Source: a virus (taxonomy: Duplodnaviria > Heunggongvirae > Uroviricota > Caudoviricetes). Taken from it: DNA of 24,898 bases. Under the pieces are notes generated by a model. It was not told where the DNA came from and made no database searches. It worked only from the letters and a program-made list of their open reading frames with translations. Where the stretch lies: positions 1-24,898 of IMG/VR virus record IMGVR_UViG_2778261506_000001; one strand, written 5' to 3'. Positions 14,643 to 20,897 of the stretch are shown one piece after another; positions within the stretch are counted from its first letter, which is position 1; every line of letters starts with the position of its first letter. Both the position numbers and the translations under genes were made by a program.

Positions 14643-14668
<26 letters not shown>

Positions 14669-15188
14669 TCAGCAACCCCGGTATCAGTTCATCCAGCGCG
14701 GCTGCTTTGTTCATGGCTTTGATGATATCCCGTTTCAGGAAATCAACATGTCGGTTTTCCAGTTCCGGAAAACGCCGCTGCACCGACAGGGGGAGCCCGT
14801 CGAGAATACTGGCAATTTCACCTGCGATCCGCGACAACACGAAAGTACAGAATGCGGTTTCCACCACTTCAGCGGAGTCTCTGGCATTCTTCAGTTCCTG
14901 TGCGTCGGCCTGCGCACGCGTAAGTCGATGGCGTTCGTACTCAATAGTTCCTGGCTGGAGATCTGCCTCGCTGGCCTGCCGCAGTTCTTCAACCTCCCGG
15001 CGCAGCTTTTCGTTCTCAATTTCAGCATCCCTTTCGGCATACCATTTTATGACGGCGGCAGAGTCATAAAGCACCTCATTACCCTTGCCACCGCCTCGCA
15101 GAACGGGCATTCCCTGTTCCTGCCAGTTCTGAATGGTACGGATACTCGCACCGAAAATGTCAGCCAGCTGCTTTTTGTTGACTTCCAT
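14643..15188 (-). CDS. Nu1: terminase small subunit Nu1
   Basis: 181 aa, MEVNKKQLADIFGASIRTIQNWQEQGMPVLRGGGKGNEVLYDSAAVIKWYAERDAE...; winged-HTH N-terminus; lambda Nu1. Confidence 0.95.
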
Positions 15189-15199
15189 TGTTCATTCCA

Positions 15200-15365
15200 C
15201 GGACAAAAACAGAGAAAGGAAACGACAGAGGCCAAAAAGCCCGTTTTCAGCACCTGTCGTTTCCTTTCTTTTCAGGGGGTATTTTAAATAAAAACATTAA
15301 GTTACGACGAAGAAGAACGGAAACACCTTAAACCGGAAAATTTTCATAAATAGCGAAAACCCGCG
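15200..15365 (-). promoter_or_regulatory. cosB: terminase (Nu1) binding elements R1, R2, R3 with an A/T-rich IHF-type spacer
   Basis: three copies of the GGAAACG/CGTTTCC core at about 15216-15228, 15254-15266 (inverted) and 15316-15326, with A/T-rich tract 15281-15300 between R2 and R3; between Nu1 start and cosN as in lambda. Confidence 0.65.
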
Positions 15366-15377
15366 AGGTCGCCGCCC
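15366..15377 (-). other. cosN 12-nt cohesive-end sequence (virion chromosome ends)
   Basis: plus-strand aggtcgccgccc = reverse complement of GGGCGGCGACCT, the lambda 5' cohesive end; flanking sequence matches my recollection of both lambda chromosome ends. Confidence 0.88.
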
Positions 15378-15576
15378 CGTAACCTGTCGGATCACCGGAA
15401 AGGACCCGCAAAATGATAATAATTATCATCTGCATGTCACAACGTGCATCTACGCCATCAAACCACGTCAAATAATCAATTATGACGCAGGTATCGTATT
15501 AATTGATCTGCATCAACTTAACGTAAAAACAACTTCAGACAATACAAATCAGCGACACTGAATACGGGACAACCTC

Positions 15577-15810
15577 ATGTCAACGAAGAACAGAACCCGC
15601 AGAACAACAACCCGCAACATCCGCTTTCCTAACCAAATGATTGAACAAATTAACATCGCTCTTGAGCAAAAAGGGTCTGGGAATTTCTCAGCCTGGGTCA
15701 TTGAAGCCTGCCGCCGGAGACTGTGCTCAGAAAAAAGAGTTTCGCCTGAAGCAAACAAAGAAAAGAGTGACATTACTGAATTGCTCAGAAAACAGGTCAG
15801 ACCAGATTGA
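15577..15810 (+). CDS. small basic protein, likely ribbon-helix-helix-like (resembles the conserved lambdoid right-end ORF, YlcI/DUF3950-like); diverged C-terminus
   Basis: 77 aa ORF with ATG start; MSTKNRTRRTTTRNIRFPNQMIEQINIALEQKGSGNFSAWVIEACRRRL...; opposite strand to late genes, adjacent to cos. Confidence 0.55.
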   Translation: MSTKNRTRRTTTRNIRFPNQMIEQINIALEQKGSGNFSAWVIEACRRRLCSEKRVSPEANKEKSDITELLRKQVRPD

Positions 15811-15867
15811 AGCAATTTAGATAATCGTGCAGACTACGCCCCATCATATCACATGGAAGGTACTACA

Positions 15868-16278
15868 ATGGCTCAGGTTGCCATTTTTAAACAAATATTC
15901 GATAAAGTGCGAAATAATTTAAACTATCACTGGTTTTATTCTGAACTAAAACGTCACAATGTCTCACATTACATTTACTATTTAGCCACAGAGAATATTC
16001 ATCTTGTTCTTGAAAACGATAATACGGTTTTAATAAAAGGACAGGGTAAGGTTGTAAATGTAAGATTTTCAAAAAATAAATGCCTTATAGAAGCCACCTT
16101 AAAAGGATTCAAATCAGGAGAGTTATCATTTTACGAATACAGGAAAAATCTTGCTACAGCAGGGGTTTTCAGATGGATTACAAATATCCACGAAAACAAA
16201 AGGTATTACTATACCTTTGATAATTCATTACTATTTACTGAGAACATTCAGAACACTACACAAATATTTCCGCACTAA
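15868..16278 (+). CDS. DUF1398-like protein (YbcV / lambda right-end ORF family)
   Basis: Start placed at ATG 15868 preceded by GGAAGG RBS (136 aa: [18 protein letters not shown]...[24 protein letters not shown]); AT-rich; track ORF starts 5 codons upstream. Confidence 0.65.
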
Positions 16279-16286
16279 ATCATAAC

Positions 16287-16315
16287 GTCCGGTTTCTTCC
16301 GCGCCAGAACCGGAC
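16287..16315 (+). other. 8-bp inverted repeat / stem-loop after the DUF1398-like gene
   Basis: GTCCGGTT (16287-16294) and AACCGGAC (16308-16315) with 13-nt loop; no U-run. Confidence 0.3.
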
Positions 16316-16792
16316 TCGCTGGCATGATGAAATATGTGTACCCGGTAACCCCGGTGTGCATCGTTTTTGATTATTCCCGCACACTCACGCAGAAGGAATT
16401 CCCCGTCGGGCTACGGTCATGGTTAATGCGGGAATACGGCGACGATACAGCGCATGATGTGTCAGGCTTGAATACCTTTATCCGTTAAAAGGGATATCAG
16501 TTAAGTTATCCCGTGTAGGGTATAAGCCATTGTCGAGACCACTCATTGAATGGCCTCTGCAATAACCGATGTCTTTCCATCAGTCCGCCACCACAAAGAA
16601 TCTTTTTTGCCTTAAGGCAGGAGCTTCATCTTTCAGTGGCTGCCAGTGTTATTTCCCCACTTACTGGCTTGGGTTGTTTCGTGGTACTGCCGTTAACTGG
16701 TGGCCCAGAATAAATTCCGGTTTCATTATCAAGCCCACCCGTAAATGGGCTTTGTAATGAAGAGTTGTTATGAAAATTGCTCTAAACAAGCA

Positions 16793-17281
16793 TTAATAGC
16801 CATCAGAAGTAATCGCTACAGATTTCAATCCCTCAATGTCATCCTTGGACAGGGCGAACCATTCACCGTGCTTTCTCTTTGCGGCAAATTTGCGATGAAG
16901 CATGTTTTCAGTTTCTCTTCCACCAGGGATCAGGCACTCAAGCTTCAAGCAGTCTGGTCCAGAGTTGCCAAGCGATTTGATGCGTTGTGGAATGTTGGAT
17001 GAATACCCAATTTTGGTTAGCCCAGTTTTCTTCGATGACAAAACGTATACCTGAGGAGGTTCTTTTCTCTGGTCTTCCATTACACGTCTCATTGTTGCCA
17101 TAAGTCCGCCGTGCATCAGCATTTCAACAAAGAACGCTGACCGAACACCTGACGACTTAAGCATGCCAGAAAATTCACTTGCCAATTCCATTAACTCTGC
17201 GATGTTTTCAGGAACTTTTTGGCAGTTATCTTCCTTGTATAAGGAAATCATTCTTTGAAGCTTTTCTTCTAATTGGTTCAT
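16793..17281 (-). CDS. cargo protein with C-terminal T5orf172 (MUG113-like, GIY-YIG-related) domain; N-terminal ~85 aa of unknown function
   Basis: ATG at 17281 with AAAGGTAAAG upstream (162 aa); track start 17317 is GTG (174 aa). C-terminal pattern VYVLSSKKTGLTKIGYS...RIKSL...ETENMLHRKF...KHGEWF; occupies the bor position between Rz and cos. Confidence 0.6.
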   Translation of the reverse strand: MNQLEEKLQRMISLYKEDNCQKVPENIAELMELASEFSGMLKSSGVRSAFFVEMLMHGGLMATMRRVMEDQRKEPPQVYVLSSKKTGLTKIGYSSNIPQRIKSLGNSGPDCLKLECLIPGGRETENMLHRKFAAKRKHGEWFALSKDDIEGLKSVAITSDGY

Positions 17282-17430
17282 AGCGTCTTTACCTTTTAGA
17301 AAGTGAGCCTGTCTCACAGAAAAGCCGCCCCGAGATGGTCGCCACCATATACGGCAGTTCTCAGGCTCAACTTTCTGAAAGGCTCGGGTGATGTAATATG
17401 CGCGTGAGATGCGCTGTGAAATTCAGATGT

Positions 17431-17458
17431 AAAAAAAGCCCCGCATCGCGAGGCTCAT
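17431..17458 (-). terminator. intrinsic terminator after the lysis cassette
   Basis: minus strand AGCCTCGC-GAT-GCGGGGCT followed by TTTTTTT, about 30 nt after the Rz stop. Confidence 0.6.
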
Positions 17459-17486
17459 TAAATGGACTTTGTGATTTGCAAAAAAA

Positions 17487-17945
17487 TTATTTCAGGCATT
17501 GCGTCCTGATGTATTCCTGCAGGTAGTTAACCTGCGCGGTTATCTTGTCGATTCCACTTCGGAGACGGTAATAATTGAGTTCAGCATCTGCTGTAAGTCC
17601 TGGGCTTTCTCCATCGCCCATGCCGCTGGCTCCGGTCGTTGACTTTGCACAGGTGGCGGCGACTTGCAGGCGCTTACGCCCAGCAGAAACATCAGCACGG
17701 AGACTTTCGATAGTCGCGTTAGCATCAGCAAGCTCCTTTGTGTATCTTGCGTCGAGTTCTGCTACATCACGTTGACGCTTCCGCATGTCAGCGATGGTGG
17801 CGTTCGCCTTCTCCAGTTCACTGGCCTTGTTATCGCGCTGCTCTTTGTAGGCGATTGCGTTATCACGGTAATGATTAACAGCCCATGACAGGCAGACGAT
17901 GATGCAGATAACCAGAGCGGAGATAATCGCGGTTACTCTGCTCAT
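17487..17945 (-). CDS. Rz: i-spanin Rz
   Basis: Start placed at ATG 17945 ([38 protein letters not shown]..., ATGA overlap with R stop); N-terminal TM helix and coiled coil; track ORF starts 4 codons upstream. Confidence 0.9.
17540..17725 (-). CDS. Rz1: o-spanin Rz1, embedded in Rz in the +1 frame
   Basis: Start placed at ATG 17725 (track start 17731 is TTG); [20 protein letters not shown] with lipobox VSAC, then Pro-rich mature region [13 protein letters not shown]... Confidence 0.75.
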
Positions 17946-18439
17946 TGTTTCCCCCACAAACAGATTTCACGCTCAATCTCACGACGAGTCATGAGACCTT
18001 TCCATTGCTTACCGCCAGCATATGTCCAGCGACGTAGCTGATCACATGCGCCTTTGATATCGCCCTGGTTTATTTTGCGAAGAAGCGTCGATGTTCTGAA
18101 ATTGCCAGCACCCACGTTGTAAACGAATGAGTAAAGAGCGCCGCGCGTTGTTTCCGGTATATCGACTTCGATGTACGGGTTAATTTGTCTGGCGACAGTG
18201 GCAAGGTCTTTATTCAAGAGTGCTTTGCATTCTGCTTTGGTATACGTTTTACCGAGCATGATGTCTTTTCCTGTATGCCCGTGACATACAGTCCATACAC
18301 CAACAATATCTTTGTATGGTATGTAGCTGACACCTTCCAGACCATCGTTACCACTTGGGCCAGTGATTAACACTGATGCTATAGCAATTGCTCCGCCACC
18401 AATAGCAGCAGCAACGGCTTTTCGTAATGATGGAGGCAT
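17942..18439 (-). CDS. R: SAR endolysin (phage-21 R type lysozyme)
   Basis: 165 aa; N-terminal Gly/Ala-rich weakly hydrophobic SAR segment [20 protein letters not shown]; lysozyme-like body; matches remembered R21. Confidence 0.92.
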
Positions 18440-18654
18440 TATTCACCTCTCGCAGCCTTGCGCTTATCTTCTTTAATCTTGAAATAAAGGTTTGTCAGGT
18501 ACGTCAGCAGGCCAAATACCAGGCTACCCAGCACACCTATTGCTGCCCACTGTGAGGGCGTGACTTTATCGAGCAGCTGTAAAAACCAGTACCCGGCACT
18601 ACCTGCTGAGGTGCCATAGGCGACACCCGTTGTTAACTTATCCATGGATTTCAT
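18439..18654 (-). CDS. S: pinholin S (phage-21 S type) with dual-start motif
   Basis: 71 aa, [71 protein letters not shown]; Met1/Met4 dual start; two TM segments; GAGGTGGGG RBS. Confidence 0.9.
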
Positions 18655-18769
18655 AACCCCACCTCGCAGACAAAGCGGGTGTAAATTGAGGGAATACTAC
18701 GAAACGTAACAGACTCGGAGTCAGTGAATAACTCAGGTATTGGGTTATCAGCTAATATCGAGACTCAAA

Positions 18770-18800
18770 AAATGGAAAAACCCGCTCGACGGCGGGTTTA
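18770..18800 (-). terminator. intrinsic terminator about 115 nt upstream of S (candidate tR'-like terminator)
   Basis: minus strand AAACCCGC-CGTCGA-GCGGGTTT with the stem running into TTTTTCCATTTTTT. Confidence 0.55.
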
Positions 18801-19226
18801 AGCTGTGTGACGAAGTAACCACTCTTAACAGCATAACCAATTTTTTACGTACGTAAACCACTAAATGATATTTGCGAGAATGCTACCGAGTATTGAAAAC
18901 ACCACTACAAATACATAAGCAAATCTCAACAAATAACCAACAAATAATTTCCAGTGTTATTTTTAGCCGGTTTAAATTGAACCTTCAAATTATAGAGCAC
19001 TTATAAATAACAGCCGTTAATATAAATTGGCTAATAGATTTATTTTTATTCAGCCAAGAGCCATGAATAGGATTCGATAGAAAAAAGTTCAGATAAAAAT
19101 AGAGATCTACTTCACAAATCAAACGAGAAACCAAAACTTACATCTTGAAATAATCACATTGATTAGATGAATATTTATCGCGCAGTGACATCATTTTTTA
19201 ATAATAGTTCAAAAAAAGGGCTCACG

Positions 19227-20324
19227 ATGAAAAAATTAACAGTGGCAATTTCTGCTGTAGCTGCATCAGTACTGATGGCGATGTCTGCTCAGGCAGCTGA
19301 AATTTATAATAAAGACAGTAACAAGCTGGATCTGTACGGGAAAGTTAATGCTAAGCACTACTTCTCCTCTAATGATGCAGATGATGGTGATACTACTTAT
19401 GCCCGTCTTGGCTTCAAAGGTGAAACCCAAATCAACGATCAACTGACTGGTTTCGGTCAGTGGGAATATGAATTCAAAGGCAACCGCGCTGAATCTCAAG
19501 GTTCCTCCAAAGATAAAACCCGTCTTGCCTTCGCTGGCCTGAAATTCGGTGACTACGGCTCCATCGATTACGGCCGTAACTACGGTGTAGCATACGACAT
19601 CGGTGCGTGGACTGACGTCCTGCCAGAATTCGGTGGTGACACTTGGACTCAAACCGACGTGTTCATGACTCAACGTGCAACTGGTGTTGCAACCTATCGT
19701 AACAACGACTTCTTTGGTCTGGTTGATGGTCTGAACTTTGCTGCTCAGTACCAAGGCAAAAACGATCGTAGCGATTTCGATAACTACACTGAAGGTAACG
19801 GTGATGGCTTCGGTTTCTCTGCTACCTATGAATACGAAGGATTCGGTATCGGTGCAACTTATGCGAAATCTGATCGTACCGACACTCAAGTTAATGCAGG
19901 GAAAGTTCTTCCTGAAGTATTTGCTTCCGGTAAAAATGCAGAAGTTTGGGCCGCAGGTCTGAAATATGACGCTAACAACATTTACCTGGCCACTACCTAT
20001 TCTGAAACCCAGAATATGACTGTATTTGCTGATCACTTCGTTGCTAATAAAGCCCAAAACTTCGAAGCTGTTGCACAATATCAGTTCGATTTCGGTCTGC
20101 GTCCGTCCGTTGCTTACCTGCAATCTAAAGGTAAGGATCTTGGAGTATGGGGCGATCAGGACTTAGTCAAATATGTTGATGTAGGTGCAACCTATTACTT
20201 CAACAAAAATATGTCTACTTTCGTTGATTACAAAATCAACCTGCTTGACAAAAATGACTTCACTAAAGCACTCGGTGTAAGCACTGATGACATCGTTGCT
20301 GTAGGTCTGGTTTACCAGTTCTAA
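19227..20324 (+). CDS. nmpC: outer-membrane general porin of OmpC/OmpF family, prophage NmpC/Lc type
   Basis: Start placed at ATG 19227 after AAAGGG RBS (365 aa); signal peptide [23 protein letters not shown] then [17 protein letters not shown]...; C-terminal VYQF; track ORF starts 20 codons upstream. Confidence 0.93.
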
Positions 20325-20462
20325 TCTGATTACGAAAAAGATATGTTGCGGGAGGCGTTGCCTCCCCAACATATAAGTGGCTCCCTCAAGCCACTTCCTT
20401 TAGAAGCACAACCTTGCTTCTAACTATATAAACCTTCTGTTATATATTACCCTTTATTTTTG

Positions 20463-20486
20463 GGGGCGTCTCAACGCCCCATTTTT
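20463..20486 (+). terminator. intrinsic terminator downstream of the porin gene
   Basis: GGGGCG-TCTCAA-CGCCCC followed by ATTTTT; last of four consecutive hairpins after the porin stop. Confidence 0.6.
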
Positions 20487-20513
20487 AATAATTTTTAGTA
20501 AACAATTGGCATA

Positions 20514-20897
20514 TTAATTAGAGTTATTAACAACGATATCCATCTCTAACCGGATATCTAATGCCATTAACATCCCTTCAATTATGCCCTCAGCCTTTTG
20601 TAACCTTTTCCCGATATAACCATCAGAGCAGCAATGCTTACCTGCCAGTGACATGAATGTCATACCGACTACATAATAATCTACTAATAAATCGTGCAAA
20701 TCGCTGTTGTTCTTTTTCAGACGGGCCATGCACCCGCAAATGATCATCGCGTCATCGTCACAACATTGCGGGCGAGATTTTACTTTTGAAGGAATTAATC
20801 CCTTAAAACCGGCGGCAATGGACGACCAGGTCACATCTTCATGATTATTAGCCGCCCACGCTCCCCAACGCTCAAGAACCATCTGAATATCACGCAT
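20514..20897 (-). CDS. quuD: late-gene antiterminator Q (DLP12 QuuD / phage-82 Q type)
   Basis: Start placed at ATG 20897 (127 aa: [34 protein letters not shown]...[16 protein letters not shown]...); track start 20912 is TTG. Confidence 0.85.

Follow-up and report, generated by a model that had tools for sequence, protein, structure and literature searches.

A T5orf172/MUG113 gene behind a structured RNA leader at the rha site of a lambdoid Escherichia coli prophage

What does a gene with a GIY-YIG-type nuclease domain do between the lysis and packaging genes of a lambdoid prophage? The question is raised by IMG/VR record IMGVR_UViG_2778261506_000001 (positions 1 to 24,898; "the window" means this whole stretch of 24,898 nucleotides, nt), a complete lambdoid E. 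coli prophage of DLP12-type layout. Its late operon runs on the minus strand in the order quuD, essD, rrrD, Rz, terminator, the open reading frame (ORF) studied here, nohD/Nu1, terL, and head and tail genes. The original prediction, made from the letters of the sequence, had described a minus-strand ORF read from ATG 17281 (162 amino acids, aa) or GTG 17317 (174 aa) and an intrinsic terminator closing the lysis cassette ahead of it, and both were found as described. We found that the classical rha locus, which separates Rz from the packaging genes in lambdoid and P22-like phages, holds a polymorphic cassette of one or two genes, and that this gene is one of its alleles. The gene lies behind a structured, covarying RNA leader that, together with the logic of the cassette, is the most novel element of the locus. 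We read the gene, tentatively, as a late-expressed, translationally locked DNA endonuclease cassette that would serve homing-like spread or conflict between phages. The argument draws on the following features.

16793-17281, minus strand: coding sequence of the gene (ATG start, 162 aa plus stop), a helical module joined to T5orf172/MUG113, the equivalent of HK106 gp64
17066-17281, minus strand: N-terminal module, residues 1-72, a three-helix bundle in an AlphaFold2 model (predicted local distance difference test, pLDDT, 84.9)
16796-17065, minus strand: C-terminal T5orf172/MUG113 domain, residues 73-162, with a GIY-YIG-type alpha/beta fold
17292-17295, minus strand: Shine-Dalgarno AAGG, read from the sequence, in the 3′ strand of the basal helix of the leader
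17282-17388, minus strand: structured 5′ leader of about 105 nt, four stacked helices with 34 base pairs, from folding and a covariance model
17436-17456, minus strand: Rho-independent terminator, GAGCCTCGC-GAT-GCGGGGCTT and then a T-run, with a 9-bp stem that includes six GC pairs
16731-16759, minus strand: 3′ boundary of the cassette, from BLAST junctions with loci L004 and L005; alleles with other cargo share sequence again from about 16759
16568-16700, minus strand: conserved 3′ flanking module of about 130 nt, with more than 80% column identity over 94 distinct sequences

The start codon is ATG 17281. The longer reading from GTG 17317 (16793-17317, minus strand, 174 aa) was rejected because the Prokaryotic Genome Annotation Pipeline (PGAP) picks the ATG, because the unrelated rha gene of E. 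coli A28 begins at the homologous ATG behind a 99.7% identical upstream flank, and because the epsilon34-type leader carries an in-frame TAA that closes the GTG frame before the ATG. We also noted that the phi80 record (L227 2668-3222) opens rha 36 nt upstream of the ATG that matches the cargo starts here; this annotated start falls within the 3′ strand of the leader hairpin and gives the same in-frame extension as GTG 17317 does in the window (17282-17317). The starts of many PGAP "Rha family" coding sequences that overlap the leader are probably called too far upstream. The ORF had been described as AT-richer than its flanks, and its GC content is indeed 42.9%, compared with 52.2% for Rz, 54.2% for terL and 51.8% for the whole window. 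The ratio of nonsynonymous to synonymous substitution (dN/dS) is about 0.15 against the Salmonella homologue and 0.08 against the Klebsiella homologue (range 0.08-0.16), and in the Salmonella comparison, where synonymous sites are unsaturated, it is low in both domains. Such low values show that the ORF is a real phage gene under purifying selection.

The assignment to the rha locus follows from the upstream flank and ATG shared with the A28 rha gene and from the presence of the same leader before phi80 rha. Across 17277-17600, from the 3′ end of Rz through terminator and leader to the ATG, the window matches A28 at 99.7% identity, and A28 has a Rha protein of 174 aa as its cargo; E. coli G12 instead carries a KilA-N+ORF11CD3 protein of 165 aa and, next to it, an ORF of 87 aa. 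The view that the gene is cargo at a variable site is borne out, as other prophages hold Rha, KilA-N or ANT genes between the same flanks. The terminator (17456-17436 in the sense of the late operon) is kept upstream of the cassette in the HK106, epsilon34, E. coli A28, Salmonella and Klebsiella loci, and is annotated as such in the HK106, epsilon34 and phi80 records. A consensus scan for sigma-70 promoters found none between the terminator and the ATG; the best candidate by eye, TTCACA-16-TATTAC, is weak and unconserved in HK106, and the stretch from terminator to hairpin varies between alleles. On the other side, the 3′ boundary stretch contains a hairpin, AAGCCCA-N8-TGGGCTT, at 16731-16752, and the flanking module beyond it is kept whatever the cargo or packaging genes (it is present in HK106, epsilon34, A28 and G12) and includes a terminator-like hairpin on the plus strand at 16604-16623. 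A possible ORF of 24 codons starts at 16579 (minus strand) after this module, and the epsilon34 record notes a likeness to the N-terminus of ST64T orf118; the module may act as leader for a second slot of variable gene content.

The gene had been placed at the bor position of lambda. This is correct for the interval, as borD of the K-12 DLP12 prophage also lies between Rz and cos, but not for the arrangement: borD is on the opposite strand, whereas the gene studied here is co-directional with Rz and the late operon, and the site is the rha locus. The annotation of rha in the phi80 record reads "DNA synthesis inhibition in IHF- hosts" (IHF, integration host factor), and a secondary summary places rha and P22 orf201 in the late operon and describes them as impairing lytic growth when IHF is missing (PMC4936722); what we say of rha is drawn from this summary and from the phi80 record.

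The leader folds with a minimum free energy (MFE) of about -44 kcal/mol (z=-3.8 for a 201-nt stretch), and its hairpin stops about 10 nt short of the ATG. In the basal helix GYCUUU is paired with AAAGG, that is, with the Shine-Dalgarno sequence. A covariance model (R1), built from the MFE structure of the window and then used to guide the alignment, recovered 95 copies in 94 sources, representing 58 distinct sequences. Among these 58, paired cells amounted to 94.2% against 84.8% in shuffles, changes on both sides occurred in 29 of the 34 pairs against 12.3 in shuffles, and the covariation score was 0.302 against 0.130, none of 500 shuffles reaching the observed values; because the alignment followed the model, such pairing counts are inflated in favour of the structure. 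In controls with the structure slid along the alignment, 41-50% of cells paired and scores were 0.03-0.06. In the basal helix (alignment columns 6-11 with 129-137), the four inner pairs form in 53-58 of the 58 sequences and the outermost in 45. Divergent leaders from Klebsiella, Salmonella and IMG/VR adopt the same fold with compensatory changes. RNAalifold run on MAFFT alignments of the divergent leaders gave a poor consensus because of register errors, and was replaced by the covariance model. The model scores 143 bits on the minus (sense) strand and 21.6 bits on the plus strand, and several leader pairs are mostly G-U, which holds on the sense strand only; this asymmetry points to an RNA read in the same direction as the late transcript. 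Rfam, searched at an expect value (E) of up to 1 over 15200-20600, has no match at the leader. We found the leader in 153 phage records, 77 of them from Shiga toxin (Stx)-converting phages and others from phi80, HK620, CUS-3, SPN3UB, epsilon34 and HK106.

What follows the leader differs between phages. An exact leader-pattern scan of IMG/VR gave at least 120 loci, and among the matches listed the leader is followed by:

57 loci, and 9 more of a longer form: Rha family
15 loci: helical module plus T5orf172
12 and 10 loci, in two clusters: KilA-N
8 loci: unknown 198-aa ORF
6 loci: ANT/KilAC
1 locus: bare T5orf172 of 108 aa
1 locus: unclassified 50-aa ORF
1 locus: no ORF of at least 40 aa

Copies of the leader found with the covariance model likewise stand upstream of Rha, KilA-N, ANT and T5orf172 cargo. 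In some phages the late operon has a further copy of the leader at another place (L070 595-707, L165 438-545 and, on the minus strand, L033 11107-11216), and such second copies precede HNH_3+AP2 proteins (170-177 aa), whose architecture is that of homing endonucleases, one truncated remnant of such a protein (L033), a Rha+ORF11CD3 protein and two unknown ORFs; at L012 2517-3029 the HNH_3+AP2 gene lies between the antiterminator Q and holin genes. The cassette also shows signs of mobility. Compared with HK106 there is a single mismatch across 17330-16756 (about 575 nt), next to about 33 mismatches in the adjacent leader. Over 40 IMG/VR loci the gene is 98-100% identical, whereas Rz, where detectable, is 65-100% identical, and holin, lysozyme, DUF1398 and nohD are often absent or unrelated. 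Patchy spread and a cassette better conserved than its flanks across different genomic backgrounds, both seen here, are features of free-standing homing endonuclease genes.

The predicted assignment of the C-terminal part to the T5orf172/MUG113, GIY-YIG-type group holds on profile searches, on the fold model and on the motifs that had been quoted for it, all of which are present. MUG113 (PF13455) matched with E=7.4e-15 and 55.7 bits (cutoff 22.3) at residues 102-163 of the 174-aa form and T5orf172 (PF10544) with E=3.3e-10 and 40.8 bits (cutoff 20) at residues 90-162 of the same form, while canonical GIY-YIG (PF01541) stayed under threshold (12.5 bits against a cutoff of 22.6, E=0.18). Modelled on 36 diverse homologues with 29-79% identity to the domain, residues 72-162 (numbered here and below on the 162-aa form) gave a pLDDT of 91.7 and a predicted template modelling (pTM) score of 0.82, with the order beta-beta-alpha-beta-alpha-beta-alpha of the GIY-YIG-type fold. 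Y79, K90, I91, G92, R100, E125, H129, E140, W141 and F142 are invariant in all 36. E125-N126 in ETENML aligns with what we take to be the catalytic E75-N76 of I-TevI in ERENFW. There are two departures from canonical GIY-YIG proteins, in that the tyrosine of "YIG" is Lys90 and helix 1 has no His/Tyr; the position four residues past Arg100 is Leu. The domain is a GIY-YIG superfamily member with an apparently complete catalytic set. The T5orf172 protein Odn of phage ICP1 is a proven nuclease despite lacking the helix-1 His/Tyr, and it needs the equivalent Glu (E180A; PMC8263062). Given this precedent with the same helix-1 departure, metal-dependent nuclease activity is plausible here by analogy. 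Sequence and profile searches of the PDB returned nothing significant (the best was the GIY-YIG protein BH0048, E=0.4), and no NCBIfam family matched.

The N-terminal half had been said to match nothing recognisable. This is true of Pfam, which has no match to residues 1-72, but the module is homologous to stand-alone phage proteins of 84-87 aa in Enterobacteriaceae. The N-terminus of epsilon34 gp68 matches the 87-aa protein of G12 with a BLASTP value of 1e-10, and the window protein itself does so weakly (E=0.048); a profile search with the module returned chiefly the stand-alone form, plus T5orf172 fusions of 160-163 aa. The helices span residues 3-16, 24-43 and 49-71, the bundle is mildly acidic, its structural matches are generic helical ones, and the N-terminus (MNQLEEKLQR) has neither a signal peptide nor a lipobox. 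In 10 of 10 diverse places the stand-alone gene directly follows a gene for a KilA-N+ORF11CD3 (165 aa) or KilA-N+P63C (242 aa) protein, and the two genes overlap or lie two bases apart (L228-L237, e.g. L228 2007-2764), which suggests a two-protein unit. Phages whose lysis and packaging modules differ widely have the pair between Rz and terminase, and the KilA-N+ORF11CD3 or KilA-N+P63C genes of such pairs have a more divergent leader. In the pattern-defined sample the stand-alone gene does not always follow ORF11CD3 proteins. A Rha+T5orf172 fusion also exists (P0029). These fusions and partner genes indicate that the locus draws on the network of Bro-N, KilA-N, Rha and T5orf172 domains, whose shuffling had been recognised before (10.1101/2020.11.28.402263). 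The bundle most likely mediates protein interaction or oligomerisation rather than DNA binding.

The gene is not the least-explained orphan that it had seemed. The protein is 99.4% identical to HK106 gp64, 100% identical to a gene product of phage Chlobot and 33% identical to epsilon34 gp68 and g341c gp64; it has a full-length match to PHROG 4284 ("unknown function"; 4.6e-91), and RefSeq already names it "GIY-YIG nuclease family protein". In the literature we found no characterisation of HK106 gp64, epsilon34 gp68 or the leader, and the epsilon34 genome paper is silent on gene 68. The gene is on record, and its uncharacterised product is a variant, in domain architecture, of a nuclease family already described, at a locus that is known and poorly understood. 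Among 5426 complete E. coli genomes the window-type allele occurs in 80 and the leader in 904. Profile matches to the domain number 38,231 among cluster representatives at E<=1e-3, that is, the domain is very widespread, and the full-length architecture is rare, with three representatives at E<=1e-30 and about 15 of the top 150 aligning from the N-terminal part of the query. A family-profile scan of species-representative genomes gave one full-length copy, in a metagenome-assembled genome (MAG) that is probably contaminated; the other 11 loci were partial, mostly the nuclease domain, on Streptomyces and MAG contigs. The position after the lysis genes and before terminase, on the same strand, is kept down to 33-48% protein identity in Salmonella, Klebsiella and other phage types, the exception being a distant homologue (P0016) in a different context. 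Disrupted alleles occur (P0012, P0015 and P0163). In a Klebsiella variicola prophage (L010 5001-6187), a T5orf172 homologue with 74% identity shares a 4-nt overlap with a downstream gene for a 232-aa Endonuclease_NS protein (PF01223), which would be a possible two-nuclease cassette at the same site.

How might such a cassette work? Only late transcripts antiterminated by Q would pass the terminator at 17436-17456, and the hairpin that pairs with the Shine-Dalgarno sequence would then hold off translation. The hairpin would have to be opened, and RNase III cleavage is the likeliest route, the stem having about 29 near-continuous pairs that make this enzyme the obvious candidate. Once made, the protein would cut DNA, its likeliest roles being conflict among co-resident mobile elements or homing-like spread into phages with another allele; both homing and attack on competing phages or satellites are proposed by analogy with the T5orf172 genes of ICP1 and with Odn. 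We infer that the product is toxic, which would explain the double insulation by a terminator and an SD-occluding hairpin. The homing endonucleases of ICP1 and T5-like phages belong chiefly to the T5orf172 class, whose genes cluster there near those for terminase (PMC10448857).

Several observations weigh against this endonuclease reading and keep it tentative. Typical T5orf172 homing endonucleases carry Zn-finger domains (PMC10448857), whereas the protein here has just the mildly acidic helical bundle, with no Zn-finger cysteine pattern and no recognisable sequence-specific DNA-binding domain. The representative of a Salmonella/E. coli cluster of 114 sequences (P0002) has E140G in the GEWF motif; the same representative has a D-to-Y change at residue 109. 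The commonest alleles at the site (Rha, KilA-N and ANT) have no nuclease domain, so the role that the alleles share may be one of DNA binding or regulation. No empty sites were seen in a sample limited by its exact leader pattern, in which all 49 IMG/VR sites with both flanks were spaced by 520-670 nt, the length of one cargo gene, and held cargo of about 160-180 aa; an always-occupied site looks like allelic replacement of a retained function, not the presence or absence expected of homing. Deep positional conservation and strong purifying selection fit a function useful to the phage as well as they fit selfish spread, and for the leader the inflation of pairing counts noted above has to be borne in mind.

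A regulatory role takes up the same facts. The protein could be a non-nuclease DNA-binding or regulatory protein like Rha, KilA-N and ANT, either antirepressor-like or an inhibitor of replication or packaging, with T5orf172 only binding DNA. The site is always filled, mostly with nuclease-free DNA-binding proteins; T5orf172 was initially put forward as a domain for binding DNA, one shuffled with Bro-N and KilA-N (10.1101/2020.11.28.402263); the P0029 fusion joins it to Rha, and the N-terminal module is common to the two-gene KilA-N cassettes. The helix-1 His/Tyr is missing and the second Tyr is Lys, and there is a precedent in CapR, an ICP1-satellite repressor derived from a homing endonuclease. 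Yet the positions equivalent to the catalytic Tyr, Arg and Glu are invariant at 29-79% identity, as expected of an enzyme, Odn is an active nuclease with the same motif departures (PMC8263062), and repression by CapR resides in its Zn-finger domain and not in T5orf172 (PMC10448857; 10.1101/2020.11.28.402263); we consider a purely regulatory protein unlikely. The original prediction had placed the gene at a moron site and named exclusion or anti-phage factors, homing-type endonucleases and lysogenic conversion as candidate functions; expression from the prophage, as a moron, is not favoured by our results. On that account a nuclease made at low level in the lysogen would defend it or exclude superinfecting phages by cutting or nicking incoming DNA, much as single-gene GIY-YIG defence proteins such as PD-T4-3 do, and it would suit an AT-rich cargo gene with its own upstream terminator that is rare and patchy among strains. 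PADLOC-DB v2 gave PDC-S57 as its sole match, weak and at domain level (E=8e-6); this covers profile positions 3-83 of 212, the shared nuclease domain alone, and no established defence family was matched. The gene also lies on the late-operon strand, unlike bor, no sigma-70-like promoter emerged from the consensus scan of a stretch that itself varies between alleles, a stable and conserved hairpin hides the Shine-Dalgarno sequence, and the same leader and site hold rha, which is described as a late-operon gene. A defence nuclease expressed in the lysogen is also unlikely.

A late DNA-processing accessory that benefits the phage itself, trimming or debranching concatemers before packaging in the manner of SLX1 or breaking down host DNA as T4 EndoII does, appears very unlikely. 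The gene does lie directly upstream of packaging genes in every phage type examined, the missing sequence-specific DNA-binding domain would suit a structure-specific enzyme, and the Klebsiella gene overlaps that of an Endonuclease_NS protein. Against these stand the optional nature of the gene, most related phages holding unrelated non-nuclease cargo at the site, and the Rap/NinG and RusA resolvases that lambdoid phages already have; rusA is present in the window and is annotated in the identical record of strain Combat11I9. The endonuclease reading can also be widened to a shared, so far undescribed late-operon cassette system of lambdoid and P22-like phages, including many Stx-converting ones, in which a locking RNA leader would govern interchangeable DNA-acting genes (for the helical module plus T5orf172, for HNH-AP2 endonucleases and for Rha, KilA-N and ANT proteins) exchanged through conserved flanks. 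Its effectors would be weapons or selfish elements in conflict between phages, T5orf172 would be the nuclease version, and the 72-aa module would be a shared adaptor, either fused or acting as the partner of KilA-N. In this full breadth the proposal is speculative and somewhat unlikely.

The remaining genes around the cassette are those of a DLP12-type late region, and the segment 16300-17500 (1201 nt compared) is 100% identical to that of strain Combat11I9.

18439-18654, minus strand: holin gene essD, late operon
17942-18439, minus strand: lysozyme gene rrrD, late operon
17487-17957, minus strand: Rz spanin gene, from gene calls, the final gene of the lysis cassette and upstream anchor of the cargo site
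14643-15188, minus strand: nohD/Nu1; on the 3′ side of the cargo ORF there are about 500 nt with no annotated gene

Two plus-strand genes, YlcI/DUF3950 (15577-15810) and the YbcV-like DUF1398 gene (15853-16278, GC just 31.5%), lie between the cargo ORF and nohD; they run against the late operon between cassette and cos, and given this position and orientation the PHROGs label "head protein" for DUF1398 is doubtful. Just upstream of nohD/Nu1, at 15208-15274, Rfam gave chance-level microRNA hairpin matches on both strands (E 0.24 and 0.86), which suggests a symmetric hairpin or inverted repeat in the part where cos is expected. Between quuD and essD, and opposite to the late-operon strand, we also noted an intact OmpC/NmpC-type porin gene (19167-20324, plus strand) preceded by a very AT-rich stretch (18800-19200, GC about 31%); its K-12 DLP12 orthologue, nmpC, is broken by IS5.

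Work on T5orf172 nucleases has been confined almost entirely to lytic vibriophages, and the window offers a compact, Zn-finger-free form of 162 aa in tractable coliphages (HK106 and the DLP12 type). To our knowledge, the inhibition of phage DNA synthesis by Rha in IHF-deficient hosts has been mechanistically unexplained since the 1980s-1990s. A covarying, SD-occluding leader shared by rha, KilA-N, ANT, T5orf172 and HNH-AP2 genes makes that question experimentally approachable, and bears on the silencing of toxic late proteins in temperate phages and on the movement of accessory cassettes between phages. If the protein is an active nuclease, homing-type or conflict nucleases would extend to lambdoid late operons, and such an enzyme could affect recombination among Stx phages.

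Compared with known systems, the gene departs from bor-type morons, which have their own promoter, run against the late operon and encode a lipoprotein signal; here the consensus scan detected no promoter, the strand is that of the late operon and the N-terminus carries no such signal. It shares no full-length homology with PD-T4-3, other single-gene GIY-YIG defence nucleases or PDC-S57, and differs from PD-T4-3-type genes in its late-operon strand and locked leader. In I-TevI and the Seg proteins, free-standing GIY-YIG enzymes of T-even phages, the catalytic domain is N-terminal and a long linker joins it to a DNA-binding domain at the C-terminus, whereas the catalytic domain here is C-terminal, with PF01541 under threshold; neither the joined DNA-binding domain nor, in the pattern-defined sample, the empty target sites of free-standing homing genes were found. 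The sequence match to SLX1/UPF0213 (URI-type) proteins is non-significant (E=0.4), and SLX1 differs in its C-terminal RING- or PHD-type zinc finger and in working with SLX4. Much closer are Odn (Gp88) and the other T5orf172 genes of ICP1 and T5, in which the T5orf172 domain is likewise C-terminal, keeps the conserved Arg and Glu and lacks the helix-1 His/Tyr; they too are phage-encoded, patchy and near packaging genes, and carry a modular N-terminal partner domain; the Odn locus also has neighbouring Rha- or Bro-N-type genes with small partner genes (PMC8263062, PMC10448857). Odn differs in having a RepA_N DNA-binding domain, and most T5orf172 homing endonucleases have CapR/DUF723/DUF4397 Zn-fingers, whereas the protein described here is much smaller (162 aa), has the 72-aa helical bundle in their place and belongs to temperate lambdoid rather than lytic phages. 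By site, the nearest relatives are phi80 rha and P22 orf201 (Rha, PF09669). The Rha proteins have a winged-helix-type DNA-binding domain, no nuclease domain and no kinship in sequence or fold with the protein of the window, but their genes likewise follow Rz and the terminator on the late strand behind the same structured leader, begin at the same start codon (in E. coli A28), encode products of similar size (160-185 aa) and deliver a potentially harmful late product.

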